Shown piece after piece: positions 786 through 16,089 of a stretch of DNA of 64,000 nucleotides. A program made the position numbers and the translations under genes. How positions within the stretch are numbered: position 1 is the stretch's first letter; the number at the start of each line of letters is the position of its first letter. This DNA is from a virus. Taxonomy: Duplodnaviria > Caudoviricetes. The stretch lies in the IMG/VR virus record IMGVR_UViG_3300036546_000248, one strand, 5' to 3'. The notes beneath the pieces are model-generated. The model made no database searches, had not been told where the DNA came from, and saw nothing but the letters and a program-made list of their open reading frames with translations.

Positions 786-794
786 CCACTTGGC

Positions 795-870
795 CTCTAA
801 GGGACTTCGGTCCCTTAGAGTGCTCTTTATGCCGGCATAAAACCCATGAGGCCCGAAGGCCTCATGGGTT
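795..870. terminator. Back-to-back terminators of convergent units
   Basis: CTCTAAGGGAC-TTCG-GTCCCTTAGAG (+) and AACCCATGAGGCC-(TTCG)-GGCCTCATGGGTT (-). Each is followed by TTTATGCCG, and the two copies overlap at 833-834. Confidence 0.85.
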
Positions 871-874
871 CGCC

Positions 875-1498
875 TTAGGCTGCCGGAGCTTCCGGTTGAG
901 CAAAGGTCCAGCTGATGGCGTTGAACGCAACATCGTCACCCAGCTCTGCAGCAGTTCGCAGTTGTTTCTCGATACCGTGGCGGTATGCGGTGAAGCCAGC
1001 CAGCGCCGGACTGTACACTGCATCATTAGCCAGGATACGCGAGACCAGGTCTTCGAAACCGTCGCCAACATTTGCAGCCACGCGCCCTTCGTTCAGTTCC
1101 ACCAGGAACGGAACTTCAGGAGCATCACCTACACGACCACCATCGATCCATGCTTGGTACGCACGGGCTTCAGTGACTTGTAGGGTCCACGTGTGTGTTT
1201 CAGCAGCGGGGTAATCGACATTGAGGACAGCCACCGCCTGATCGTAGTCAGCATTCAGACGACCCAGTTGGATGGTCAGACGCTCGGCCAGCGGCTTGGC
1301 CAGATACTCTTCTTCCGGAGTTGGGATGTGAGGTGCTTCTACAGCGATCGGATTGCCTTCGGCATCTGCATCGAGCACCTTACCGGCAGCCAACTCGATC
1401 ATCAGTGCGGTAGCAACTTCCTCGGTCAACAGAACCGCATCGTCACCCACCGGCAGGTTGAACAGGCCTTTACGAGAAGGCGAGAAATAGGTATTCAT
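875..1498 (-). CDS. Tail fibre assembly (Tfa-like) chaperone
   Basis: N-terminus MNTYFSPS..AGKVLDADAEGNPI and the YPAAETHTW..EARA motif are typical of Tfa families; lies directly downstream of a fibre gene. Confidence 0.7.
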   Translation of the reverse strand: MNTYFSPSRKGLFNLPVGDDAVLLTEEVATALMIELAAGKVLDADAEGNPIAVEAPHIPTPEEEYLAKPLAERLTIQLGRLNADYDQAVAVLNVDYPAAETHTWTLQVTEARAYQAWIDGGRVGDAPEVPFLVELNEGRVAANVGDGFEDLVSRILANDAVYSPALAGFTAYRHGIEKQLRTAAELGDDVAFNAISWTFAQPEAPAA

Positions 1499-1521
1499 TT
1501 AACGTACCTCAAGGTGATGAA

Positions 1522-2265
1522 TTACGGGGTGTACTTGATCCACAGGTCGCCGTCTTTACCGTCAGCAGCGACAGGGTCAACGGTCGACACGAAGATGTTG
1601 GCCGTCGAGGCAGTACCGAGGTTCAGTGCAGTTTGAACGTCACTGATTACCTGTGCTTTGGTGCGACCTTCAAGCTTAGCCGAATCAGCTGCCTGGGCAG
1701 TGGCGTTAAGCTTACCGGCCAGGTCGTCAGCCAGTGCAGCTTCGGCAGCCGCGACAGCTTCAGTTACAACCTGAGCTTTGCTCGAACCTTCCAACTTCTG
1801 AGAGTTTACAGCCGTAGCAGTAGCGTCCAGTTTCTGGCCGACCAGAGTGGTCAGTTCGGTGATCACATCCGGGTTGTTCTGTAGGGCTTCGGCCAGCTCA
1901 GCGATGGTGTTCAGGGCTTCCGGGGAAGCACCGATCAGCTCGTTGACAGCCGACTCGATAGCCGCTTTGGCCGACACAGCGGTGATGTACTTGACATCGT
2001 CAGTGCCCGCAACAGCTTCAGCAACCGAGGCCTTGGCGGCCACGAAGTCATTGAACCCTTGTTGCAGAGTGGCGAGGTCAGCACCCGAAGCCAGATCAGC
2101 CAGCAGAACGGCCAGTTCCAGTTCACCCACTTTGTATTGACCGAAGTCATCAGTCTTATCGACCTTGGACCCCAGCGATGCTGCGACGGAGGCAAGTGCC
2201 CCGTCTACTTTTTCCGACACCCAAGTCGAAAATTCGGCAAAGCCGAAAAAACGTTTATCAAACAT
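1522..2265 (-). CDS. Short tail-fibre-type protein with N-terminal KRFFGF anchor (247 aa)
   Basis: RBS GGAG before ATG 2265; ASPEALNTIAELAEAL collar motif, A.DS.KLEG repeats, C-terminal DGKDGDLWIKY. Confidence 0.75.
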   Translation of the reverse strand: MFDKRFFGFAEFSTWVSEKVDGALASVAASLGSKVDKTDDFGQYKVGELELAVLLADLASGADLATLQQGFNDFVAAKASVAEAVAGTDDVKYITAVSAKAAIESAVNELIGASPEALNTIAELAEALQNNPDVITELTTLVGQKLDATATAVNSQKLEGSSKAQVVTEAVAAAEAALADDLAGKLNATAQAADSAKLEGRTKAQVISDVQTALNLGTASTANIFVSTVDPVAADGKDGDLWIKYTP

Positions 2266-2367
2266 TTTTGATGCTCCGTTGAGGTGAAAATAAAGCAAGC
2301 TTGAAAAAGGTGTGTCGAGAGGCCAGTTTCGAGAGCCCTTTTTCATCGCCCTCTCATAAGATTCTGA
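2266..2367 (-). promoter_or_regulatory. TATG-type promoter plus structured leader of fibre gene 1522..2265
   Basis: TCAGAATCTTATGA-N23-GAAACTGGCCTCTC, identical in sequence and spacing to 15581-15631. Confidence 0.6.
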
Positions 2368-2406
2368 TGTTTGGTCCGCTAAAGTCCTAGAACTCCCTTT
2401 ATTTTT

Positions 2407-3186
2407 TTAATCCTTTCTGATTAAACGGATGAACCAAGCTGCTGTATCGACTTCACCCTTTTTCATCACGGTGGTCCATGAGCGAGGATGTGCGTGGTGG
2501 TTGTTGTGTAAACCACAAGCACCAAAACTCAACAAGTGCATGCTCGGGGAGTTTTGAGAATGGTCGGGTGTGTCGAAACTACGGTAGTTCAGAGGTGCCT
2601 TAGCATGAAGCATGTAGTTTTGGACCGTAGAAAGAAAGGGTCCCAACGCCCAAGGCAAAAGTACAATGAACATCAACCCATTGATCCCCGCCAACCAATA
2701 CCACAGACACGCCCACCCCAACATCCAAAGAACGTAGTATTGGTGCAGTGATTTGTGGATAGGGTCACGAGCCAAGTAACGAACAGAATGTAACGTTCCC
2801 GTGTAAGGATAACGCCACACCAACAACTCCCAGAACTTCGAGTATTGTGCACTGTGTGGATCTTTCTCGGTATCCGAGTATTGATGATGGGCGGCGTGGA
2901 TCATCGCCCAACCCATGGTCGATCCAGTTCCCGGTACCACACTGGTCAGTACTGCCAATAACCACTCAACAGGTTTGCTAAGTTGATACGCCCCATGAGT
3001 ACAGAAGCGATGGGCAAAGGCTTCGATCAAACAAATGTTGAAAAACGCCACCACACCCAAAGTCGCCCACAACCACTGGTAATTCAGTTGTGTTGTGTAG
3101 TGAAGAACCGGTAGTAGTGTCACTACTAACAACACCTGCAGCGGCATGAACTCGCCCCGCGAACGAGTGTATTCCCAAAGTTTCAT
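2407..3186 (-). CDS. Membrane fatty-acid desaturase (delta-9/DesC-like), copy 3
   Basis: His boxes HRFCTH, HAAHH, HNNHH plus transmembrane segments. Confidence 0.9.
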   Translation of the reverse strand: MKLWEYTRSRGEFMPLQVLLVVTLLPVLHYTTQLNYQWLWATLGVVAFFNICLIEAFAHRFCTHGAYQLSKPVEWLLAVLTSVVPGTGSTMGWAMIHAAHHQYSDTEKDPHSAQYSKFWELLVWRYPYTGTLHSVRYLARDPIHKSLHQYYVLWMLGWACLWYWLAGINGLMFIVLLPWALGPFLSTVQNYMLHAKAPLNYRSFDTPDHSQNSPSMHLLSFGACGLHNNHHAHPRSWTTVMKKGEVDTAAWFIRLIRKD

Positions 3187-3196
3187 ATCAACCCCC

Positions 3197-4120
3197 TTAA
3201 GACAAAAGTGTCACAAATTGTTCGAGGTACGATTCTTGGTTTGGGATTGCTCGATTAAAAGCAACCCGCAAATGATGCGTACCGTTGTAGGAGATCACTT
3301 GGAGTCTTCCCATCTGATTCTTCTTTAGAAACTGTACCAGTTCAGTAGGTTCAAAGTGACTGGAACCTATCGGGAAAGAGCCTACAAAGAAGTTTCCAAT
3401 CTTCTCACTCAAACCAAACTTCATGATCAAACGAGTGAAGTTTTCGTGACTGATGTCGAGCGAGAACTTCCCGTCTTTATTAGACCCTAAAGCATAGAGC
3501 GAGTAGTGTCCCCAATAGTCCTCACACCCTTCTACAAAGCGCGTGGTGATGATGTTAGGGTTATCCAATACCGTACAAGTCACTTGAGCGAGGTAGTCCT
3601 GTACACGCATCCCTAGGGCTTTAGCTTGACGCAAGTAACCGGTACCAATGGGGATGCTGTAGGTGTTGGCTAAACCGACCTCCCCTTCAAAGACAAAGGG
3701 TCTCAGTTCCATTGGTCCCGTCGGTTGTATTTTCGGTAAAGGTTGGTTGGATACATAAGTCCCTACCTCACCAGTTCGGGCAATGTGGAACAGTTCACGC
3801 GTGGTCTTCATGAACGTCCAACCATCAACAAACTCGTGGGACAAACCAATCCAAAATCCGTTATCGTCCTCGGTGACCGATAAGCAGGTTGGAATCTGTT
3901 GGTGGAGGTTACCGTGACCTTGTGTTACCAACACCCGATCATGTTCCACGACTTTACCATTGACCACACAGGCTTTAAGAAGTGGGATGTGATGAGTCAG
4001 TTCGTCCACCGCTTCTTGCATCAGGTTGCGGTCACATGGGAATAAAGGGACGTTCAAACTGCTGTACATCATCGCCTTTCCATCATTAAGAAAGGCTTTC
4101 TGAAGTAGGTTCAATTTCAT
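3197..4120 (-). CDS. Stand-alone condensation-domain-like / CoA-dependent acyltransferase (307 aa)
   Basis: LNLLQ, AVDELTHHIPLLKA and SHEFVDG resemble C-domain motifs C1, C2 and C3 (xHxxxDG); ATGA overlap with the upstream desaturase. Confidence 0.65.
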   Translation of the reverse strand: MKLNLLQKAFLNDGKAMMYSSLNVPLFPCDRNLMQEAVDELTHHIPLLKACVVNGKVVEHDRVLVTQGHGNLHQQIPTCLSVTEDDNGFWIGLSHEFVDGWTFMKTTRELFHIARTGEVGTYVSNQPLPKIQPTGPMELRPFVFEGEVGLANTYSIPIGTGYLRQAKALGMRVQDYLAQVTCTVLDNPNIITTRFVEGCEDYWGHYSLYALGSNKDGKFSLDISHENFTRLIMKFGLSEKIGNFFVGSFPIGSSHFEPTELVQFLKKNQMGRLQVISYNGTHHLRVAFNRAIPNQESYLEQFVTLLS

Positions 4121-4860
4121 CGTTTGATTAGCCTGATAAACCACGCCCCTGGGTCAATTTCGCCTTTTTTCATGGCCATGTCCCAGCGGTTGGGGAAAGC
4201 GTGGTGGTTGTTGTGTAGACCCTCACCCCCAAACAAAAGTGCTAAAAGTTTGGAGTTGCGTGAGTCATCATTAGTGTTCCAACTCTGGTATCCGAACCTA
4301 TGGACCCAGTCGAGCAAAACTGTTTTGCGTAATACCTGAGTACACGCCGTTGGGATCGCCCACAAATAGATCAGAGCCTCCCACGAGATCAAGGCTAGAA
4401 CACCGGCCGTTACTAGAGGATACAAAAGGTAGTACTTTTGAATACGCATCGCAACAGGGTCGTTTAGAAACTGTTTGAGTAACCGTCGGGGGATTGTGAG
4501 GTTCAGTTTCTTAGCGTTGACCAAACCCCAACCGCGATAATGGTTGTGGGGGTCGTTCGGGGTGTCTGAATGTTTGTGGTGCTCGCGGTGGATAGCAATG
4601 CTGATATAGGGATGGAGTCCTCCGGCGGCACAGATAGCCCACACCATAAACTCCCGCCAGAATGGACTGGTTTCAAATGAACGGTGTACAAAGTACCGAT
4701 GAGCCCCACAGGCGACGCCGCAGACCCAATACACTTGAAAGGCCATAAAACTCCCCAGTACCCATAAGGCACTGGGGTGAATTACGCAGAACAGACTGAT
4801 TCCCATTGCCAGCACAGCTACCAGAACCGAAGCCCTGCCACTGAACTGTAGATATTTCAT
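4117..4860 (-). CDS. Membrane fatty-acid desaturase, copy 2
   Basis: GAHRYFVH, HREHH, GEGLHNNHH. Confidence 0.92.
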   Translation of the reverse strand: MKYLQFSGRASVLVAVLAMGISLFCVIHPSALWVLGSFMAFQVYWVCGVACGAHRYFVHRSFETSPFWREFMVWAICAAGGLHPYISIAIHREHHKHSDTPNDPHNHYRGWGLVNAKKLNLTIPRRLLKQFLNDPVAMRIQKYYLLYPLVTAGVLALISWEALIYLWAIPTACTQVLRKTVLLDWVHRFGYQSWNTNDDSRNSKLLALLFGGEGLHNNHHAFPNRWDMAMKKGEIDPGAWFIRLIKR

Positions 4861-5645
4861 TTACGGATCACCTTGATAATCCAATAAGCTGGATCGAATT
4901 CCCACCACTTCTCACGAAGGTTAACGGCCGTTTGGTCGTGATGGTGGTTGTTGTGCCAACCTTCACCCCCGGAGATGAGTGATACGAACCACCAGTTGTG
5001 ACTCAAGTCAGGTGTTTCGTGGTTACGGTAACCCAGTCCCGGTACGTGTCCTGACCAAACCACAAACCGCAAAGTCATGTGACACATACCACCTGGAACG
5101 AGGTACAACCAGAAGAGTGCAGTCAGAGGATCAAGTCCTGCAAGTACACCCACCGAGGTCAGACCAGCTGCCAACAGCGCTACGATCAAGAAGTAATACT
5201 TGATAGTCAATCCGTGCATCGGGTCACTTGCCAACATCTTAAGCAACATGCGGTTGCCTTTGAAGTTTTCGTGGCTGAAGGGTGAGACTCCTGTGCGGAT
5301 AAAGTCGATATACGGATCATCGTCTTCATCGGCATGTTTGTGGTGCTTGATGTGCAGATCAGCCCATACACAAGGCGGACCTGTCAAGGCACCTACGCAA
5401 CTGACTGCCATCACCCACTGCCAGAAACGACTGGTTGTGAACATCCGGTGAGAGAAATAACGATGCGCTCCCACCACCAATCCCATCACTTGCAAAAACT
5501 GCCAGATAGCAAGGGTTGCAAACAACAGTCCCCAACTCATGCCAAAGACGTACGCCACCAAGGGCGCTGTAAGGACACAGGCTGCGGTCAACCGATTAAC
5601 GACTTTAAGTCGTGAGTAGGTAATCATGAAAGGTGGGGTTTGCAT
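4857..5645 (-). CDS. Membrane fatty-acid desaturase, copy 1
   Basis: GAHRYFSH, HIKHH, GEGWHNNHH. Confidence 0.92.
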   Translation of the reverse strand: MQTPPFMITYSRLKVVNRLTAACVLTAPLVAYVFGMSWGLLFATLAIWQFLQVMGLVVGAHRYFSHRMFTTSRFWQWVMAVSCVGALTGPPCVWADLHIKHHKHADEDDDPYIDFIRTGVSPFSHENFKGNRMLLKMLASDPMHGLTIKYYFLIVALLAAGLTSVGVLAGLDPLTALFWLYLVPGGMCHMTLRFVVWSGHVPGLGYRNHETPDLSHNWWFVSLISGGEGWHNNHHHDQTAVNLREKWWEFDPAYWIIKVIRK

Positions 5646-5648
5646 GCG

Positions 5649-6287
5649 TTACTCCTGAAGGCTTTCGACGGTGGCTAAACTCTCCACCGGAACGTTGGTA
5701 CATTGGGCTTTGACTTCTTCTACAGTTGCTTCATAAACATAGACCAGGAACGCATTGTCTTGTCCGGTATTACGGAAGCTGTAGTCTTGGGGTTTAGTCA
5801 AACGAAGGTGTTTGATGCTATTGAACACCCCGCCGTCATTTACCTGAAGAGCCCCTTCTACGATAAAGACATTTTGCTCCATCTCTCGAGGGGTGATCAC
5901 ACACGACTCACCGGGAGCCAACGCGTAGTTCTTCGACAGGTAGAGCTTGGCCATCGGGTCTTGTGCATTGATGCACATAAACCGATTGCGATCCTCCATC
6001 CCCAGCAGATGAAAACTACCCTTGATGGTCACACGACTCTCATCGCCACCGTCACCACGACTCCGAATGAATTCGGGTGTAACGGTAGAGCCGACTTTAA
6101 AAGCCCCTTCGATAAAGGCGTTGAATCGGTAGGTGTTGATACCTGCATCGCTGGAACCCAAAGTCGCTTGTGCGGGCACGTCTACAGGTACTGCGGCGAT
6201 CTTGTTTTTTTCCAGAACCAGTTCGAACAAGTCAAAGCCATTTACGCGAGTGACGTTCCAACCGTTACGGGTATAGGTTGTACTCAT
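5649..6287 (-). CDS. Cupin-like beta-barrel protein
   Basis: C-terminal pattern LAPGESCVI..VFIVEGALQVN..FRNTG..AFLVY resembles RmlC/pirin-type cupins; ATG directly follows the upstream TAA. Confidence 0.5.
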   Translation of the reverse strand: MSTTYTRNGWNVTRVNGFDLFELVLEKNKIAAVPVDVPAQATLGSSDAGINTYRFNAFIEGAFKVGSTVTPEFIRSRGDGGDESRVTIKGSFHLLGMEDRNRFMCINAQDPMAKLYLSKNYALAPGESCVITPREMEQNVFIVEGALQVNDGGVFNSIKHLRLTKPQDYSFRNTGQDNAFLVYVYEATVEEVKAQCTNVPVESLATVESLQE

Positions 6288-6524
6288 TTAAATCTCCTCC
6301 GTGACTTCTCGAGTCACTTGGGTTTCTTCCAATCCTTCGTTGTGATTGGTGGCGGGTTGATGAGGCAGACCGCAGTTGAACAGAACCGCATAGGCCATCC
6401 CTTGAAGGAATGCTTCGTCTGGAGGGAGTGCACCCACATCCATAGGCTCGTAAAAGATCTCCACATTCCCATGCAGTGTTTCTACCACCACACTCTTTTC
6501 ATTACGACTGACAAAATTAAACAT
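6288..6524 (-). CDS. Small acidic hypothetical protein (78 aa)
   Basis: Tightly packed between the adhesin-like gene and the cupin gene. Confidence 0.65.
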   Translation of the reverse strand: MFNFVSRNEKSVVVETLHGNVEIFYEPMDVGALPPDEAFLQGMAYAVLFNCGLPHQPATNHNEGLEETQVTREVTEEI

Positions 6525-6534
6525 GGAGTCACCT

Positions 6535-7086
6535 TTATGGGAGGAGTTTAACGACAGTGGATTTATTGAGGATAGCGCTTCTTACAGTCGTAAATTGTGC
6601 CGCGGTTATAGCAACAGAAAAGACAATTGTACTGGTGCCAGTTTTAGTGTTTGTAACAACTGTAAAGGCTCCTGAGAACGTCACCCCACCAATTACCAGT
6701 TTGGTCGCGTAGGACCAAGCAGGTCTCGCTCCACCCGTATTGACTTCAAAAGACACACTGTAGCTACCGGCATAATTCATTACCGAACAAGTCGAAATGG
6801 CGTAGCCAGATAACGTGGTCGGTGAAACCGAGCCGTACGTGGCTGAGCCGAAACCCACATTCTCATACCCAGATGTGGGTACATAGGAAACGGCACCCAA
6901 AGTGATTTCAGCCAGACTGTTGTTAACGGCCTTGCCGCGCAACATCGACAAGTTCACCTGACCACTGAGTGCACCTACTAGTTGACGAATAGAGGCATCA
7001 CTCAAATTTAATTGTTGATTGGCAGGACGACCCAATTCAGTATTGATCATACTGAATGTGATCGGACCGGAAGTAGGCAATGCCAT
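6535..7086 (-). CDS. Putative fibre-tip adhesin (183 aa)
   Basis: N-terminal MALPTSGPITFSMINTELG..LSMLRGK domain is common in small proteins that follow S74-bearing fibres; beta-rich C-terminus. Confidence 0.55.
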   Translation of the reverse strand: MALPTSGPITFSMINTELGRPANQQLNLSDASIRQLVGALSGQVNLSMLRGKAVNNSLAEITLGAVSYVPTSGYENVGFGSATYGSVSPTTLSGYAISTCSVMNYAGSYSVSFEVNTGGARPAWSYATKLVIGGVTFSGAFTVVTNTKTGTSTIVFSVAITAAQFTTVRSAILNKSTVVKLLP

Positions 7087-7101
7087 GGTGTATTACCTCG
7101 C

Positions 7102-7136
7102 AATAAAAAAGGACTGAGTCGTAGCGGCTCAGTCCT
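7102..7136 (-). terminator. Intrinsic terminator between the long fibre gene and the adhesin/desaturase cassette
   Basis: AGGACTGAG/CTCAGTCCT stem followed by a T-tract on the minus strand. Confidence 0.75.
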
Positions 7137-7147
7137 ATACACAGGGC

Positions 7148-8836
7148 TTATTTTTCGAGTTGGCTTTGGAGTTCGGTAAGTTGCACTTTGATTTGCTCAA
7201 CCGACAGCACCAATTGATCGAGTTTCGATCGATCATTGTCAGCCAAGTCCGCCAGCTCATTGATCGCCATTACCACGTACGGAAGTGTGCGGTGGTATTT
7301 CATTGTGAGGTAGTACTCACCCGATCTTGAGACATTCGGTTCCCCGTCGTCATCGTAATCAAAAGGTGCCAACTCAACAATTTCAGGCGCAACGACTTGC
7401 CATTCTTGAGCACTGAAACCCACCTCAGGTTTGAGGGGGTCGTAGCCAAACCCTGCGGCCAATTCGTTGGCCGTATAGCGATAGCCCGTGATGGTACGTA
7501 GACTTTCCAAAGCCCCTTCAATCGGCGTCATGTTCTCTTTCAGACGTTCGTCGGAGTAGAAGCCACTGATCTCACCTGTGGCTGCAATGTTACCCTCAAC
7601 GTAGAAACTCTTAGACCCGTACACACGAACCCAAGTAGTATCCGACATATGGATGCCGCCACCATAGGTCTCGCTATACCAACCTGTTGCTCCGGTGGAA
7701 CGGAACCAGTTCCCCGTATAGAAAGTCGAAGCCGTGATGTTACCGTTTACGGTACCACCCGACGTACTGAACTTGGCATCCAGAGCTGCTTGAAGACCCG
7801 ATACAGTCGAGATCGCTTGTGTACCCGTATGGTTACTACGGCTCAACAATGCAGCGTCTGTGGAGTTAACAGTGGCGCCGGCTGAGATACCATTGAGCTT
7901 GGCTTTATCGGCCGCACTTAACAACCCAGCCGCCGCAGTAGTGGCTCCAGGCAAACTGGCATTCGTACCCGTGGAGCTGGTTATAGTACCGGCAGTAGCA
8001 CCTGTGGTATAGCCCAAATCGGTAGGTACGTTGACTTGGGCGCCAGCAGCAATACCGTCCAGTTTGGTTTTATCCGCAGAGCCTGTCCACCATGCAGCAA
8101 TTGCCTGACGTACCCGTTGTGCAGTCCAAGCACGACGCGTTGTAGCCACACCTGTCTCTGCTTCAGACTGGGTGATCGTAGTCGCTGACCACTCACGGGC
8201 ATCTGTCAACCGTGTATCCGTCTTGTCGACTTTAGAAGCCAACTGGTTGGTGATGGTAGTTGCAAAGTTGGGATCATTACCCAATGCCGTTGCCAACTCA
8301 TTCAACGTATTCAACGCATCAGGAGAAGAATCTACCAGCGCCGAAATAGCTGCATTTGTGAAGGCTTTGTACTCAGCTTCGATTGTCGCCAGTTGTTTAC
8401 CATCAAGCGCGTCAGCATCCAATCCTGAGTTAGGACCGTCCACTGTCAACAGCTTAGCCAAAACGTCACCAGCGGTATAGCCAGATGCATTGAGTTTGGT
8501 GTTCAATGCGGCCTGAAGAACGTCAGGCTGTACCGCAGTGTCGGCCTTAACGCCTTGTGCGGCAGTTGCAAATTCGGTACGGGCCGTCACATCCAACTTA
8601 GTGTCTAGGTTGGCTGCTGCGATTGCCTCAAGAATAATCTGGGCTTTTGTTTTACCGTCAAGCAAGGATGAATCCACAGCTTTTCCAGCAATTGCCAAGA
8701 AAGTCTCAAGGGCTTCTTGTTTCGTGTGTACACTGGTTTTATCAGCTTTAAGGTTGAGGGCATCCATGACCCCCGTGACTTGGTCACGCACCCACATGCT
8801 GAAATCAGCAAACCCAAAATAACGTTTATTGGTCAT
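7148..8836 (-). CDS. Long tail fibre with C-terminal peptidase S74 intramolecular chaperone
   Basis: KRYFGF N-terminus, SPDALNTLNELATALGNDPNFA collar motif, NWFRSTG..WY..GGG motif, YSDERLKEN chaperone start, C-terminal coiled coil. Confidence 0.88.
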   Translation of the reverse strand: MTNKRYFGFADFSMWVRDQVTGVMDALNLKADKTSVHTKQEALETFLAIAGKAVDSSLLDGKTKAQIILEAIAAANLDTKLDVTARTEFATAAQGVKADTAVQPDVLQAALNTKLNASGYTAGDVLAKLLTVDGPNSGLDADALDGKQLATIEAEYKAFTNAAISALVDSSPDALNTLNELATALGNDPNFATTITNQLASKVDKTDTRLTDAREWSATTITQSEAETGVATTRRAWTAQRVRQAIAAWWTGSADKTKLDGIAAGAQVNVPTDLGYTTGATAGTITSSTGTNASLPGATTAAAGLLSAADKAKLNGISAGATVNSTDAALLSRSNHTGTQAISTVSGLQAALDAKFSTSGGTVNGNITASTFYTGNWFRSTGATGWYSETYGGGIHMSDTTWVRVYGSKSFYVEGNIAATGEISGFYSDERLKENMTPIEGALESLRTITGYRYTANELAAGFGYDPLKPEVGFSAQEWQVVAPEIVELAPFDYDDDGEPNVSRSGEYYLTMKYHRTLPYVVMAINELADLADNDRSKLDQLVLSVEQIKVQLTELQSQLEK

Positions 8837-8940
8837 TGTGAAGTCTCCAGTTTAAGTATCGAGGCAAAAAAAAAATAAGGGCTAGACTTAAGTTTGGAAA
8901 AATGTCTTCTCTTTGTAAGTCTAGCCCTCTTCATAAAATT
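8837..8940 (-). promoter_or_regulatory. TATG followed by a 13-bp stem and U10 tract upstream of the RBS (terminator or attenuator-like leader)
   Basis: TTTTATGA-AGGGCTAGACTTA-N25-TAAGTCTAGCCCT-TA-T10-GCC...AAACTGGAG. Confidence 0.6.
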
Positions 8941-8963
8941 GCTTAGGGACAGACCCCCATTGA

Positions 8964-9527
8964 CTAACGCCAGTTAGAGTCTAACTTCACTACTGCGTTG
9001 GGTAAACCACCTGTGACTGGGATGCCAGAACCGCAAGGTGTCAGAGATAGTCGGTTAATACCTACCCTCACTACAGGTTTGAAGCCAGCATATTGTACGT
9101 TGTCACTCGCATCGTAACGAATAGAGCCTAGGTACATCGATTCCAAACTCTCAGGCATAATCTCCCTTCTAATCTGGTGTTCCACCACCCCGCCACCGAT
9201 AGTCAAGTAGACATGATAGACTTTATTAGCCGTCACTTCGTCTTGAATAACAGTTTCAAATTGATCGAACACCCTAGACTGCCCTCGGATAAACGCCACG
9301 TTTCGTTTAGTGAACCTTACTGTTTTTCCAGTAACGGAAACCCCGATGTCGTCGTCGTTAATTTCACCATAACGACTAACAGACAACGAACCCAGGGATA
9401 GCCTACTGTCCAAGTACTGATCCACGTATGTGGTGGTGACCCCTCCACAATTAACCAGCAGCAACCAATTGGATGTTCTCCAACCGCGAGGCTTTGCGTA
9501 CATCAATTGAGGTGATGGTGCTGGCAC
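8964..9527 (-). CDS. Tail protein module of the phiKZ gp131-135-like family; start uncertain
   Basis: S-RYG and YHVYL motifs shared with the three upstream paralogues; C-terminal GSGIPVTGGLP..W; no clean RBS/start pair. Confidence 0.65.
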   Translation of the reverse strand: MPAPSPQLMYAKPRGWRTSNWLLLVNCGGVTTTYVDQYLDSRLSLGSLSVSRYGEINDDDIGVSVTGKTVRFTKRNVAFIRGQSRVFDQFETVIQDEVTANKVYHVYLTIGGGVVEHQIRREIMPESLESMYLGSIRYDASDNVQYAGFKPVVRVGINRLSLTPCGSGIPVTGGLPNAVVKLDSNWR

Positions 9528-15524: not shown

Positions 15525-15631
15525 AATGAAGACTCCAGTTTGTGTATTAAGGCAAAAAAAAACAAGAACCCGACTTGCAAGAGAGGCCAGTTTCCCAAGC
15601 GTAGCCTTAGTTCCTTTTCATAAGATTCTGA
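15525..15631 (-). promoter_or_regulatory. TATG-type promoter plus structured leader with U9 tract
   Basis: Bipartite motif shared with 2317-2367; T-tract-GCC...AAACTGGAG shared with the leader at 8837-8880. Confidence 0.6.
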
Positions 15632-15657
15632 ATAAATACGGTATAAAGCCCGCCCCG

Positions 15658-16089
15658 TTAATCGGGACGGACTTTGCGTATTTGTGTCAGAATTTGTTGG
15701 GTACAGCTCATCACACGAGTTGGGTACAAACGTAAGTCGTATGCCGAACCACAAGAAAGACGATCTTCGGTAATAAGGTCTTTGTTAACATGGACGATTT
15801 CATCGTAGTTTTCACGAATCAGAACGGTCAAGTAGTCAAAGAACTCATCACTGATAATGGTCTCATCCAAGTAGTAATAGGCGTAACTACCCATCAGCCA
15901 CCAGGATACTGCAATGTTTTTAGAGCGCTTAAGGAGGTTCGCTACATATACATCCAAAACACCATTGACCACCATCAAAGGAGGGTATTGGTAATTAGGT
16001 TGATGTTGATAACTGGCTAGGTAGCCTGACGCTTTGGGGGTCAGGCTTACCACATCAGACTCCTTAGGTGCAAAGAGGTCTATTTGCAT
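15658..16089 (-). CDS. Small protein resembling the N-terminal (Ia) domain of NAD-dependent DNA ligases
   Basis: SYAYYYLDETIISDEFFD motif; strong RBS AAGGAGG before ATG 16089. Confidence 0.55.
   Translation of the reverse strand: MQIDLFAPKESDVVSLTPKASGYLASYQHQPNYQYPPLMVVNGVLDVYVANLLKRSKNIAVSWWLMGSYAYYYLDETIISDEFFDYLTVLIRENYDEIVHVNKDLITEDRLSCGSAYDLRLYPTRVMSCTQQILTQIRKVRPD

Follow-up and report, generated by a model that had tools for sequence, protein, structure and literature searches.

The stretch of DNA analyzed here, 64,000 nucleotides (nt) of IMG/VR record IMGVR_UViG_3300036546_000248 and referred to below as the window, belongs to a phage of the Caudoviricetes and carries a unit of seven genes (2407-7086, on the minus strand, as are all cassette and fiber features described here) that encodes three membrane desaturases together with a free-standing condensation-fold enzyme, a bicupin, a small soluble protein and an adhesin-like protein. 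The unit begins with p183, similar to fiber-tip adhesins (6535..7086; phrog_26817), which is followed by six genes (2407-6524) here called the cassette: p78, coding for the small soluble protein without a family match (6288..6524); p212, coding for the bicupin, which lacks metal ligands and is of a size similar to HutD/PA5104 (5649..6287, assigned from its predicted structure); DesA (4857..5645; 262 amino acids, aa) and DesB (4117..4860; 247 aa); AT307, coding for the condensation-fold enzyme of 307 aa (3197..4120, assigned from an AlphaFold2 model and an invariant HxxxDG motif); and DesC (2407..3186; 259 aa). The three desaturases were assigned to clades A, B and C, respectively, using Pfam and a phylogenetic tree. 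By its split RNA polymerase beta subunits, the phage is of the phiKZ-like jumbo type, and its closest cultured relative, Burkholderia phage FLC9, is just 40% identical to it in one of these subunits. No description of the cassette was found in the full-text literature in searches for jumbo phages with desaturases and for phage desaturases with tail fibers and condensation domains.

Gaps across the unit range from -4 to +10 nt. The p78/p212 junction is a TAA-ATG abutment, the DesA/DesB and DesB/AT307 junctions are ATGA overlaps, and the other gaps measure 3 to 10 nt. An alternative start of AT307 at GTG 4144 was rejected, the true start being ATG 4120. A previous reading of this DNA from its letters and open reading frames (ORFs) alone, here called the sequence-only reading, had described five to six translationally coupled genes; the junctions are as it claimed, but the packed unit comprises seven genes because p183 belongs to it. 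Its placement of the enzymes between an adhesin-like gene and a short fiber gene is correct, with p183 upstream (6535-7086) and a 247-aa fiber downstream (1522-2265).

The enzymes encoded in the cassette

All three desaturases exceed the gathering cut-off of the Pfam family FA_desaturase (PF00487; 29.7 bits), with 57.4 bits for DesA, 48.8 for DesB and 53.6 for DesC, and acyl-CoA desaturase 1 (SCD1) is the sole sequence match that they have in the PDB. The HRxxxH, HxxHH and HNNHH boxes and the histidine of the fourth helix are 100% conserved within clades A, B and C and in the cellular homologs, and all nine histidines that serve as di-iron ligands are kept in each of the three clades, in agreement with the complete histidine boxes that the sequence-only reading had seen in three divergent membrane desaturases. 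The residues flanking these boxes (GAHRYFSH, HxxHHxxxDxxxDP and GEGWHNNHH) are those of the acyl-CoA/acyl-lipid Delta9 type, and a crude Kyte-Doolittle analysis finds in each of the three proteins paired hydrophobic segments around residues 10-58 and 146-188 (19-58 and 153-171 in DesA), ahead of box 1 and between boxes 2 and 3 as expected. The three desaturases are accordingly annotated here as putative, catalytically intact SCD/Delta9-type di-iron enzymes. Several non-ligand positions are fixed differently between the DesA, DesB and DesC clades, which fits different desaturase specificities.

In a tree of 146 sequences, from which the JamB/Cay/Pgn polyyne desaturases were left out, the DesA, DesB and DesC clades (39, 13 and 22 rows, respectively) each received a Shimodaira-Hasegawa-like approximate likelihood ratio test (SH-aLRT) support of 100, and all three phage clades were separate from the longer, cellular forms similar to acyl-CoA desaturases. 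Pairwise identity among the three desaturases is about 30% (31-34% for DesB versus DesA). Given three separate old clades and this low identity, the genes are old paralogs and not the recent redundant duplicates of an ordinary Delta9 desaturase that had been considered as an alternative. Among 185,579 genomes of prokaryote species, the nearest desaturases are just 27-37% identical. The 80 nearest bacterial loci contain a single desaturase gene in 79 cases and two desaturases in one, and AT307 and p212 are absent from all 80. Searches of other deposited phages with DesA and DesC yielded only three distant matches, with no detectably similar cyanophage desaturase. Other viral contigs possess short, distantly related desaturase arrays of four ORFs (L023), three (L026) or two (L017 and L018) that include neither AT307 nor p212; arrays of this kind appear to be a broader trend among phages.

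The AlphaFold model of AT307 (predicted local distance difference test score, pLDDT, 93) adopts the two-lobed, CAT-like pseudo-dimer fold and superposes over its full length on condensation and cyclization domains (C and Cy domains) of non-ribosomal peptide synthetases (NRPS), lipid-starter C domains, PapA5 and the BAHD acyltransferases. Foldseek matched it to NRPS C/Cy domains and PapA5 with an E-value of 1e-14, whole-length comparison with VIA (residues 1-307) gave Z scores of 23.1 for AzeD, 21.8 for the first C domain of CDA, 20.7 for the RzmA starter C domain with C8-CoA and 18.5 for PapA5, and template modeling (TM) scores for the fold in the Atlas were 0.79-0.83. H95, D99 and G100 of the HxxxDG motif are invariant in 10 sequences of the AT307 type, down to 26% identity; fold and motif together uphold the condensation-like xHxxxDG enzyme of the sequence-only reading. 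In sequence, AT307 has no match to any Pfam family at E-values up to 1, including Condensation (PF00668) and PapA_C, nor to NCBIfam or PHROG families, and the model thus suggests a relative of the condensation/PapA5/CAT-like superfamily at the level of the fold only.

PapA5, RzmA-Cs, CDA-C1, the VibH-type enzymes and the BAHD/CAT enzymes resemble AT307 in the whole-length two-lobed fold and in the HxxxDG motif, and several free-standing enzymes of the condensation superfamily transfer fatty-acyl groups from acyl carrier protein (ACP) or CoA thioesters. These acyltransferases are about 400-450 aa long, however, whereas AT307, with 307 residues versus about 430, represents a minimal condensation fold and matches neither Pfam Condensation nor PapA_C; it also differs in being found in phages only, in eight clusters, with no carrier protein encoded in the cassette-bearing genomes. 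The eight clusters of true relatives come from an exhaustive HMMER search of 1.84 billion protein representatives, in which a further match (P0131, a 495-aa repeat protein; E 8e-4 over a 35-residue stretch) was set aside as spurious. No relatives were detected in the 185,579 genomes of prokaryote species by a pattern scan or in 50,697 deposited phage genomes by tblastn. With 307 aa and phage-only relatives, AT307 is the smallest natural condensation-fold enzyme that could be found.

The AlphaFold2 model of p212 (pLDDT 79) matches bicupins with Foldseek E-values of 3e-7 to 1e-5, its two barrels extending over residues 4-190. The best full-length matches are PA5104/HutD, BacB, YhhW and AerE, with VIA Z scores of 11.8 for PA5104 and 10.7 for BacB. 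Like HutD/PA5104, BacB, AerE and the pirin-like YhhW, p212 is predicted to form two beta-barrels within about 190-220 residues (Z 10-12); unlike the HutD/PA5104-type bicupins, it has no conserved metal-binding histidine or glutamate, and its sequence family is confined to phage cassettes. Among six sequences of the family, no histidine, aspartate or glutamate that could act as a metal ligand is invariant, and an NTYR-N box and four arginines are; hence a binder of an anionic ligand is more likely than a metalloenzyme. The cupin proposed in the sequence-only reading holds as to the fold, but the protein is a double cupin without metal ligands. Searches with p212 gave no match in Pfam, PHROGs or NCBIfam and only cupin-type leads in the Atlas, and hhalign comparisons of its profile with a 260-aa protein of contig L037 and a 185-aa protein of L029 were not significant. 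The p78 protein is 43% identical to its counterparts in L027 and L028, and most cassettes encode a counterpart of 73-78 aa; it has no match in Pfam, PHROGs or NCBIfam, and the Atlas offered nothing usable. No hydrophobic segments were found in AT307, p212, p78 or p183.

Distribution, selection and linkage to fiber genes

The gene order p183-type adhesin, 73-78-aa protein, bicupin, DesA, DesB and AT307 recurs in at least 10 uncultured phage contigs of several phage types (L009, L027, L028, L029, L031, L033-L036 and L038), always behind a Peptidase_S74 fiber. Contig L009 is colinear with the window over 1823-8848 at 78% nucleotide identity; L027, L028 and L033-L035 form a group of jumbo phages with the cassette; and L029 and L031 are contigs of about 108 kb from another phage type, in which the cassette is located between fiber genes and an M15 endolysin and the flanks are otherwise unlike the window. 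Most of the related cassettes comprise two desaturases only. DesC is optional: it is added in three lineages, represented by the window, L009 and L036 (at the same position in the latter two), while L038 contains DesB, AT307 and DesC without DesA, L037 has DesC alone behind a fiber and a GP38 protein, and L030 carries a rearranged set. Between the window and L033-L035, the RNA polymerase beta subunits are only 37-38% identical, yet the cassette proteins reach 45-53%. A megablast search with the cassette found no match in deposited phage DNA. Judging from these sequences, the cassette is restricted to phages and recurs in unrelated ones. Near-identical copies of 2407-6524 are present in sequencing runs of 12 studies covering shale gas, wastewater, sludge, subsurface and soil, of which shale gas is the probable source; the cassette is therefore not a rarity. 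One of the runs, X13, contains 73% of the sampled words and may come from a culture.

The cassette genes are under strong purifying selection. In comparison with L009, the ratio of nonsynonymous to synonymous substitution rates (dN/dS) is 0.03-0.14 in all genes whose synonymous sites are not saturated, and it is 0.026 for p78; for DesC and AT307, dS against L009 is saturated at a dN of about 0.1. The link between desaturases and AT307 is kept across the contigs of several phage types described above, and this recurrence, the three old clades and the purifying selection argue for a conserved, pathway-like unit rather than redundant desaturase copies.

Within the window, the cassette is part of a larger fiber region (875-8965) that consists of a leader, the fib562 fiber gene, a hairpin, the seven packed genes, a second leader, the 247-aa fiber gene, an assembly gene and a double hairpin. 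The first leader, about 100 nt long (8837..8965), lies ahead of the fib562 module and aligns with 2266-2400 and 15525-15660, and three tail modules in the window start with this same leader on the minus strand. Its parts are an AATnTTATGA box, a hairpin (8862-8940 in the fib562 copy; z -4.9 by direct RNA folding), a long U-run and a AAACTGGAG ribosome-site region. The gene fib562 (7148..8836) codes for a 562-aa tail fiber that matches many PHROG tail-fiber families and ends in a C-terminal Peptidase_S74 intramolecular chaperone domain (Pfam PF13884, E 1.6e-10), and between it and p183 lies a hairpin with a U-run (7095..7147; -18.1 kcal/mol, z -3.0), a possible attenuator. The second leader copy (2266..2400), recognized by the leader alignment, precedes the next fiber gene and marks the end of the cassette unit. 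A single transcript from p183 through the assembly gene tfa207 was considered and dropped, as this conserved leader stands before the short fiber gene; the cassette therefore belongs to the fib562 unit.

The nearest record, G001, lacks the whole fiber module. Its flanks are 91-95% identical to those of the window, no desaturase was found in it, and it joins the equivalent of window position ~9440 directly to ~2364 (G001:C1:44448-44493), which amounts to a clean intergenic insertion or deletion of about 7 kb (window 2365-9439). A 187-aa ORF (8964-9527), the leader, fib562, p183 and the cassette make up this segment, which extends to the next copy of the leader; the leader is also present at the cassette-less junction of G001. 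The repeated leader is probably a late promoter with its 5' leader that also serves as a recombination substrate for swaps of whole fiber modules. Such repeats offer an obvious route for their exchange.

The cassette is associated with one type of adhesin. A p183-type gene is situated immediately upstream of the cassette in every locus examined; exactly one such gene is present in each of the four cassette-bearing jumbo genomes and one in the 64-kb window, whereas the cassette-less near relative G001 has none. In L036, a homolog of the fiber assembly gene directly follows DesC, and in L038 it is located about 1.6 kb further downstream. The p183 protein consists of a conserved N-terminal attachment module of about 53 aa and a variable C-terminus. 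Over these N-terminal 53 aa, it shares 40% identity (E 5e-9) with a protein recorded with Pfam GP38, and the Atlas gave a lead to Gp38_N with a score of 0.87, while no direct Pfam match was obtained in 11 members; p183 itself matches neither Pfam nor NCBIfam, and only two PHROGs families of unknown function. The module is common to proteins with different C-termini, including a Laminin_G/SPRY protein and the GP38-annotated protein, and at the level of sequence the family shows the pattern of exchangeable fiber-tip adhesins. The 447-aa Laminin_G_3/SPRY lectin-like protein with the p183-type N-terminal module is encoded at L030:175-1518, and the same locus contains three further p183-type genes, suggesting an interchangeable adhesin set.

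Possible function of the cassette

Partner genes were searched for among the module proteins and in four other phage genomes that carry the cassette, of which three are 96-100% complete, with control genomes that did give matches. PP-binding, AMP-binding, Fer2 and rubredoxin had no match in the four genomes, and Pfam revealed no hydrolase (thioesterase) family, acyl-AMP ligase or carrier protein among the module proteins. The absence of an ACP and of an acyl-AMP ligase, already noted in the sequence-only reading, therefore extends to whole genomes, and host acyl donors must be used.

Seven observations on these loci, namely the gene content, the folds, the intact motifs, the restriction to phages, the conserved gene order, the selection and the co-occurrence with the adhesin, lead us to favor, with modest confidence, a phage-only, adhesin-linked lipid-tailoring cassette that is expressed with the late tail-fiber genes. 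In the mechanism that we propose, the three desaturases would reside in the inner membrane of the host and, with different specificities and with electrons from host redox carriers, would desaturate fatty-acyl chains at as many as three positions. Soluble AT307 would then use its His-Asp motif to move an acyl chain from host acyl-ACP or acyl-CoA to a hydroxyl or amine acceptor, for which a fiber protein, a host lipid and lipopolysaccharide are candidates, and the arginine-rich, metal-free p212 would probably bind a negatively charged substrate or product. At the end of the pathway would stand an unsaturated acyl-lipid of an unusual kind, made late with the fibers and located in the envelope of the infected cell. 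Because the cassette comes and goes with one fiber-tip adhesin, its role would most likely be coupled to that adhesin and tied to its receptor or target membrane, as a late "lytic conversion", as exclusion of other phages or as a means of easier release.

Several points weigh against this proposal. The substrates, the order of reactions, the product, the timing and the role of the cassette are all inferred. The activity of AT307 is deduced from fold and motif only, as the protein is no sequence member of any curated family and is about 120 residues short of a normal condensation domain; condensation-fold enzymes may also dehydrate, cyclize or epimerize, and the top structural match, AzeD, is a dehydratase. 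Complex prediction of DesA and AT307 with p212 as partner, run without controls, returned a score of 0.00, which speaks neither for nor against binding. Since accessory genes commonly gather in tail-fiber regions, the linkage between cassette and fiber could be positional, not functional. Receptor masking by desaturation is not obvious, because acyl chains are buried in the membrane, and exclusion proteins known so far, such as Llp, are early products, while the cassette seems to be expressed late. Small contigs assembled from two RNA libraries match stretches of 150-240 nt in DesC, the AT307/DesC junction, DesA and p183; they are a weak hint of transcription of the cassette and not proof of it, since such contigs can be DNA.

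A more specific version, in which cassette and adhesin are cognate partners and a novel unsaturated acyl-lipid either alters the envelope target of the adhesin or is attached to it, is put forward tentatively, as a possibility that we rate well short of an even chance. If true, it would amount to enzymatic, lipid-based lytic conversion or superinfection exclusion, swapped among phages as a module of fiber, adhesin and lipid chemistry. Envelope-acting genes directly downstream of receptor-binding genes are known from T5, where llp lies behind pb5, and from the exclusion lipoproteins behind gpJ loci (PMC9586334). The cassette resembles them in its position just behind a receptor-binding or adhesin gene and in being gained and lost with it; it differs in that those are single small receptor-binding lipoproteins, while here a multi-enzyme, lipid-modifying and apparently late set is found. 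The analogy is one of position only.

As a simpler explanation, the desaturases might be plain membrane-fluidity genes that raise the unsaturation of host phospholipids, with AT307, p212 and p78 as unrelated neighbors. Phage lipid genes have so far been desaturases read as helpers of membrane fluidity: the viral fatty acid desaturases (vFADs) of cyanophages are known, active Delta9 enzymes shown to raise the unsaturation of host lipids (Roitman et al. 2017, PMC5776448), and the same effect, with a role in stress tolerance, has been proposed for vFADs from Arctic brine (PMC7300359). The enzymes described here share with them the membrane-bound Delta9/SCD type and the dependence on the host for acyl substrates and electron donors, the source annotations of their homologs read "stearoyl-CoA desaturase (delta-9)", and a DesC-type gene stands alone behind the fiber in L037. 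The vFADs, however, have been described and assayed singly, whereas here two or three old paralogs that have clade-specific residues are retained together, next to a condensation-fold enzyme, a bicupin and an adhesin. AT307 and p212 hold a constant place relative to these paralogs in divergent phages and are under equally strong selection, while the 80 nearest bacterial loci are nearly all single genes; in addition, no cyanophage desaturase is detectably similar, and the habitats (shale gas, wastewater, sludge and soil) are not specifically cold. We consider this explanation unlikely.

Maturation of a virion protein would have AT307 attach an unsaturated acyl chain to p183 or to a fiber, providing a lipid anchor for membrane contact. 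The one-to-one occurrence of the p183-type adhesin and the cassette, and the location of the L036 cassette between the adhesin and the fiber assembly gene, agree with such a scheme. The C-terminus of p183 is highly variable, though, and has no conserved acceptor motif beyond the N-terminal module; the characterized enzymes of the same fold (C domains, PapA5, BAHD and CAT) act on small-molecule or carrier-bound substrates; and no precedent is known to us for membrane desaturases that modify a soluble virion protein. This makes the maturation scheme quite unlikely.

The comparison with bacterial polyyne clusters made in the sequence-only reading did not survive the search for partner genes. The cay and pgn clusters use a triad of different membrane desaturases encoded side by side (PMC9828172), and such a triad exists in the window, L009 and L036. 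Nevertheless, the non-desaturase parts of a polyyne pathway, that is, an acyl-AMP ligase, a dedicated ACP, a thioesterase and rubredoxin, are missing from the module (and PP-binding, AMP-binding and rubredoxin matches from the cassette-bearing genomes), their place being taken by a condensation-fold enzyme and a bicupin, and most cassettes have two desaturases, the third being optional; a polyyne or other acetylenic or polyunsaturated secondary-metabolite pathway is therefore very improbable. An essential phiKZ-type role such as one in the early-infection vesicle, which that reading had also suggested, is unlikely because the cassette is accessory, lies in a late fiber unit and is missing from the nearest relative, G001, and because AT307 has no match in deposited phages, including 244 records with a match to the phiKZ-type RNA polymerase beta subunit. 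That the di-iron enzymes act on a membrane substrate other than a fatty-acyl chain (such as a polyprenol-linked or quinone-type lipid) and AT307 is no transferase but performs, for example, a dehydration, would suit the dehydratase AzeD as its best structural match (Z 23.1) and the hydroxylases that belong to the FA_desaturase superfamily, but is highly improbable in view of the Delta9-type spacing and flanks of the histidine boxes, SCD1 as the sole solved sequence relative and the transferase motif HxxxDG kept in AT307.

On the favored reading of a lipid-tailoring cassette, these genes would encode the first lipid-tailoring pathway that has several steps and is confined to phages, and knowing what it makes would reveal whether the host envelope is chemically edited by phages during assembly and release. 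Lipid engineering might also gain from it a compact acyltransferase scaffold along with three desaturase specificities.

Further features of the fiber region

Downstream of the second leader, the short tail-fiber gene (1522..2265; 247 aa) was assigned from PHROG tail-fiber families, its start at ATG 2265 being taken from the homolog in a relative. The 562-aa and 247-aa fibers have in common an N-terminal KR(F/Y)FGFA(E/D)FS-WV anchor and differ in their distal parts; the phage therefore probably mounts alternative fibers on one attachment site. The tail-fiber assembly gene tfa207 follows (875..1498; phrog_188), and behind it a strong double hairpin (790..870; -48.8 kcal/mol, z -8.3) is the probable end of the fiber transcription unit. 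The automated terminator scan missed the minus-strand hairpins, which were taken from direct RNA folding instead, and a scan for sigma-70 promoters found fewer sites than in shuffled sequence. The plus strand contains a 282-aa ORF (5703-6551) opposite p212 and p78; nothing supports it, and it is most likely a shadow ORF of these genuine genes. In the two contigs of about 108 kb, an Hfq-family protein (L029:16044-16343 and L031:15492-15821) is encoded beside a DnaB helicase and a PhoH-like ATPase.

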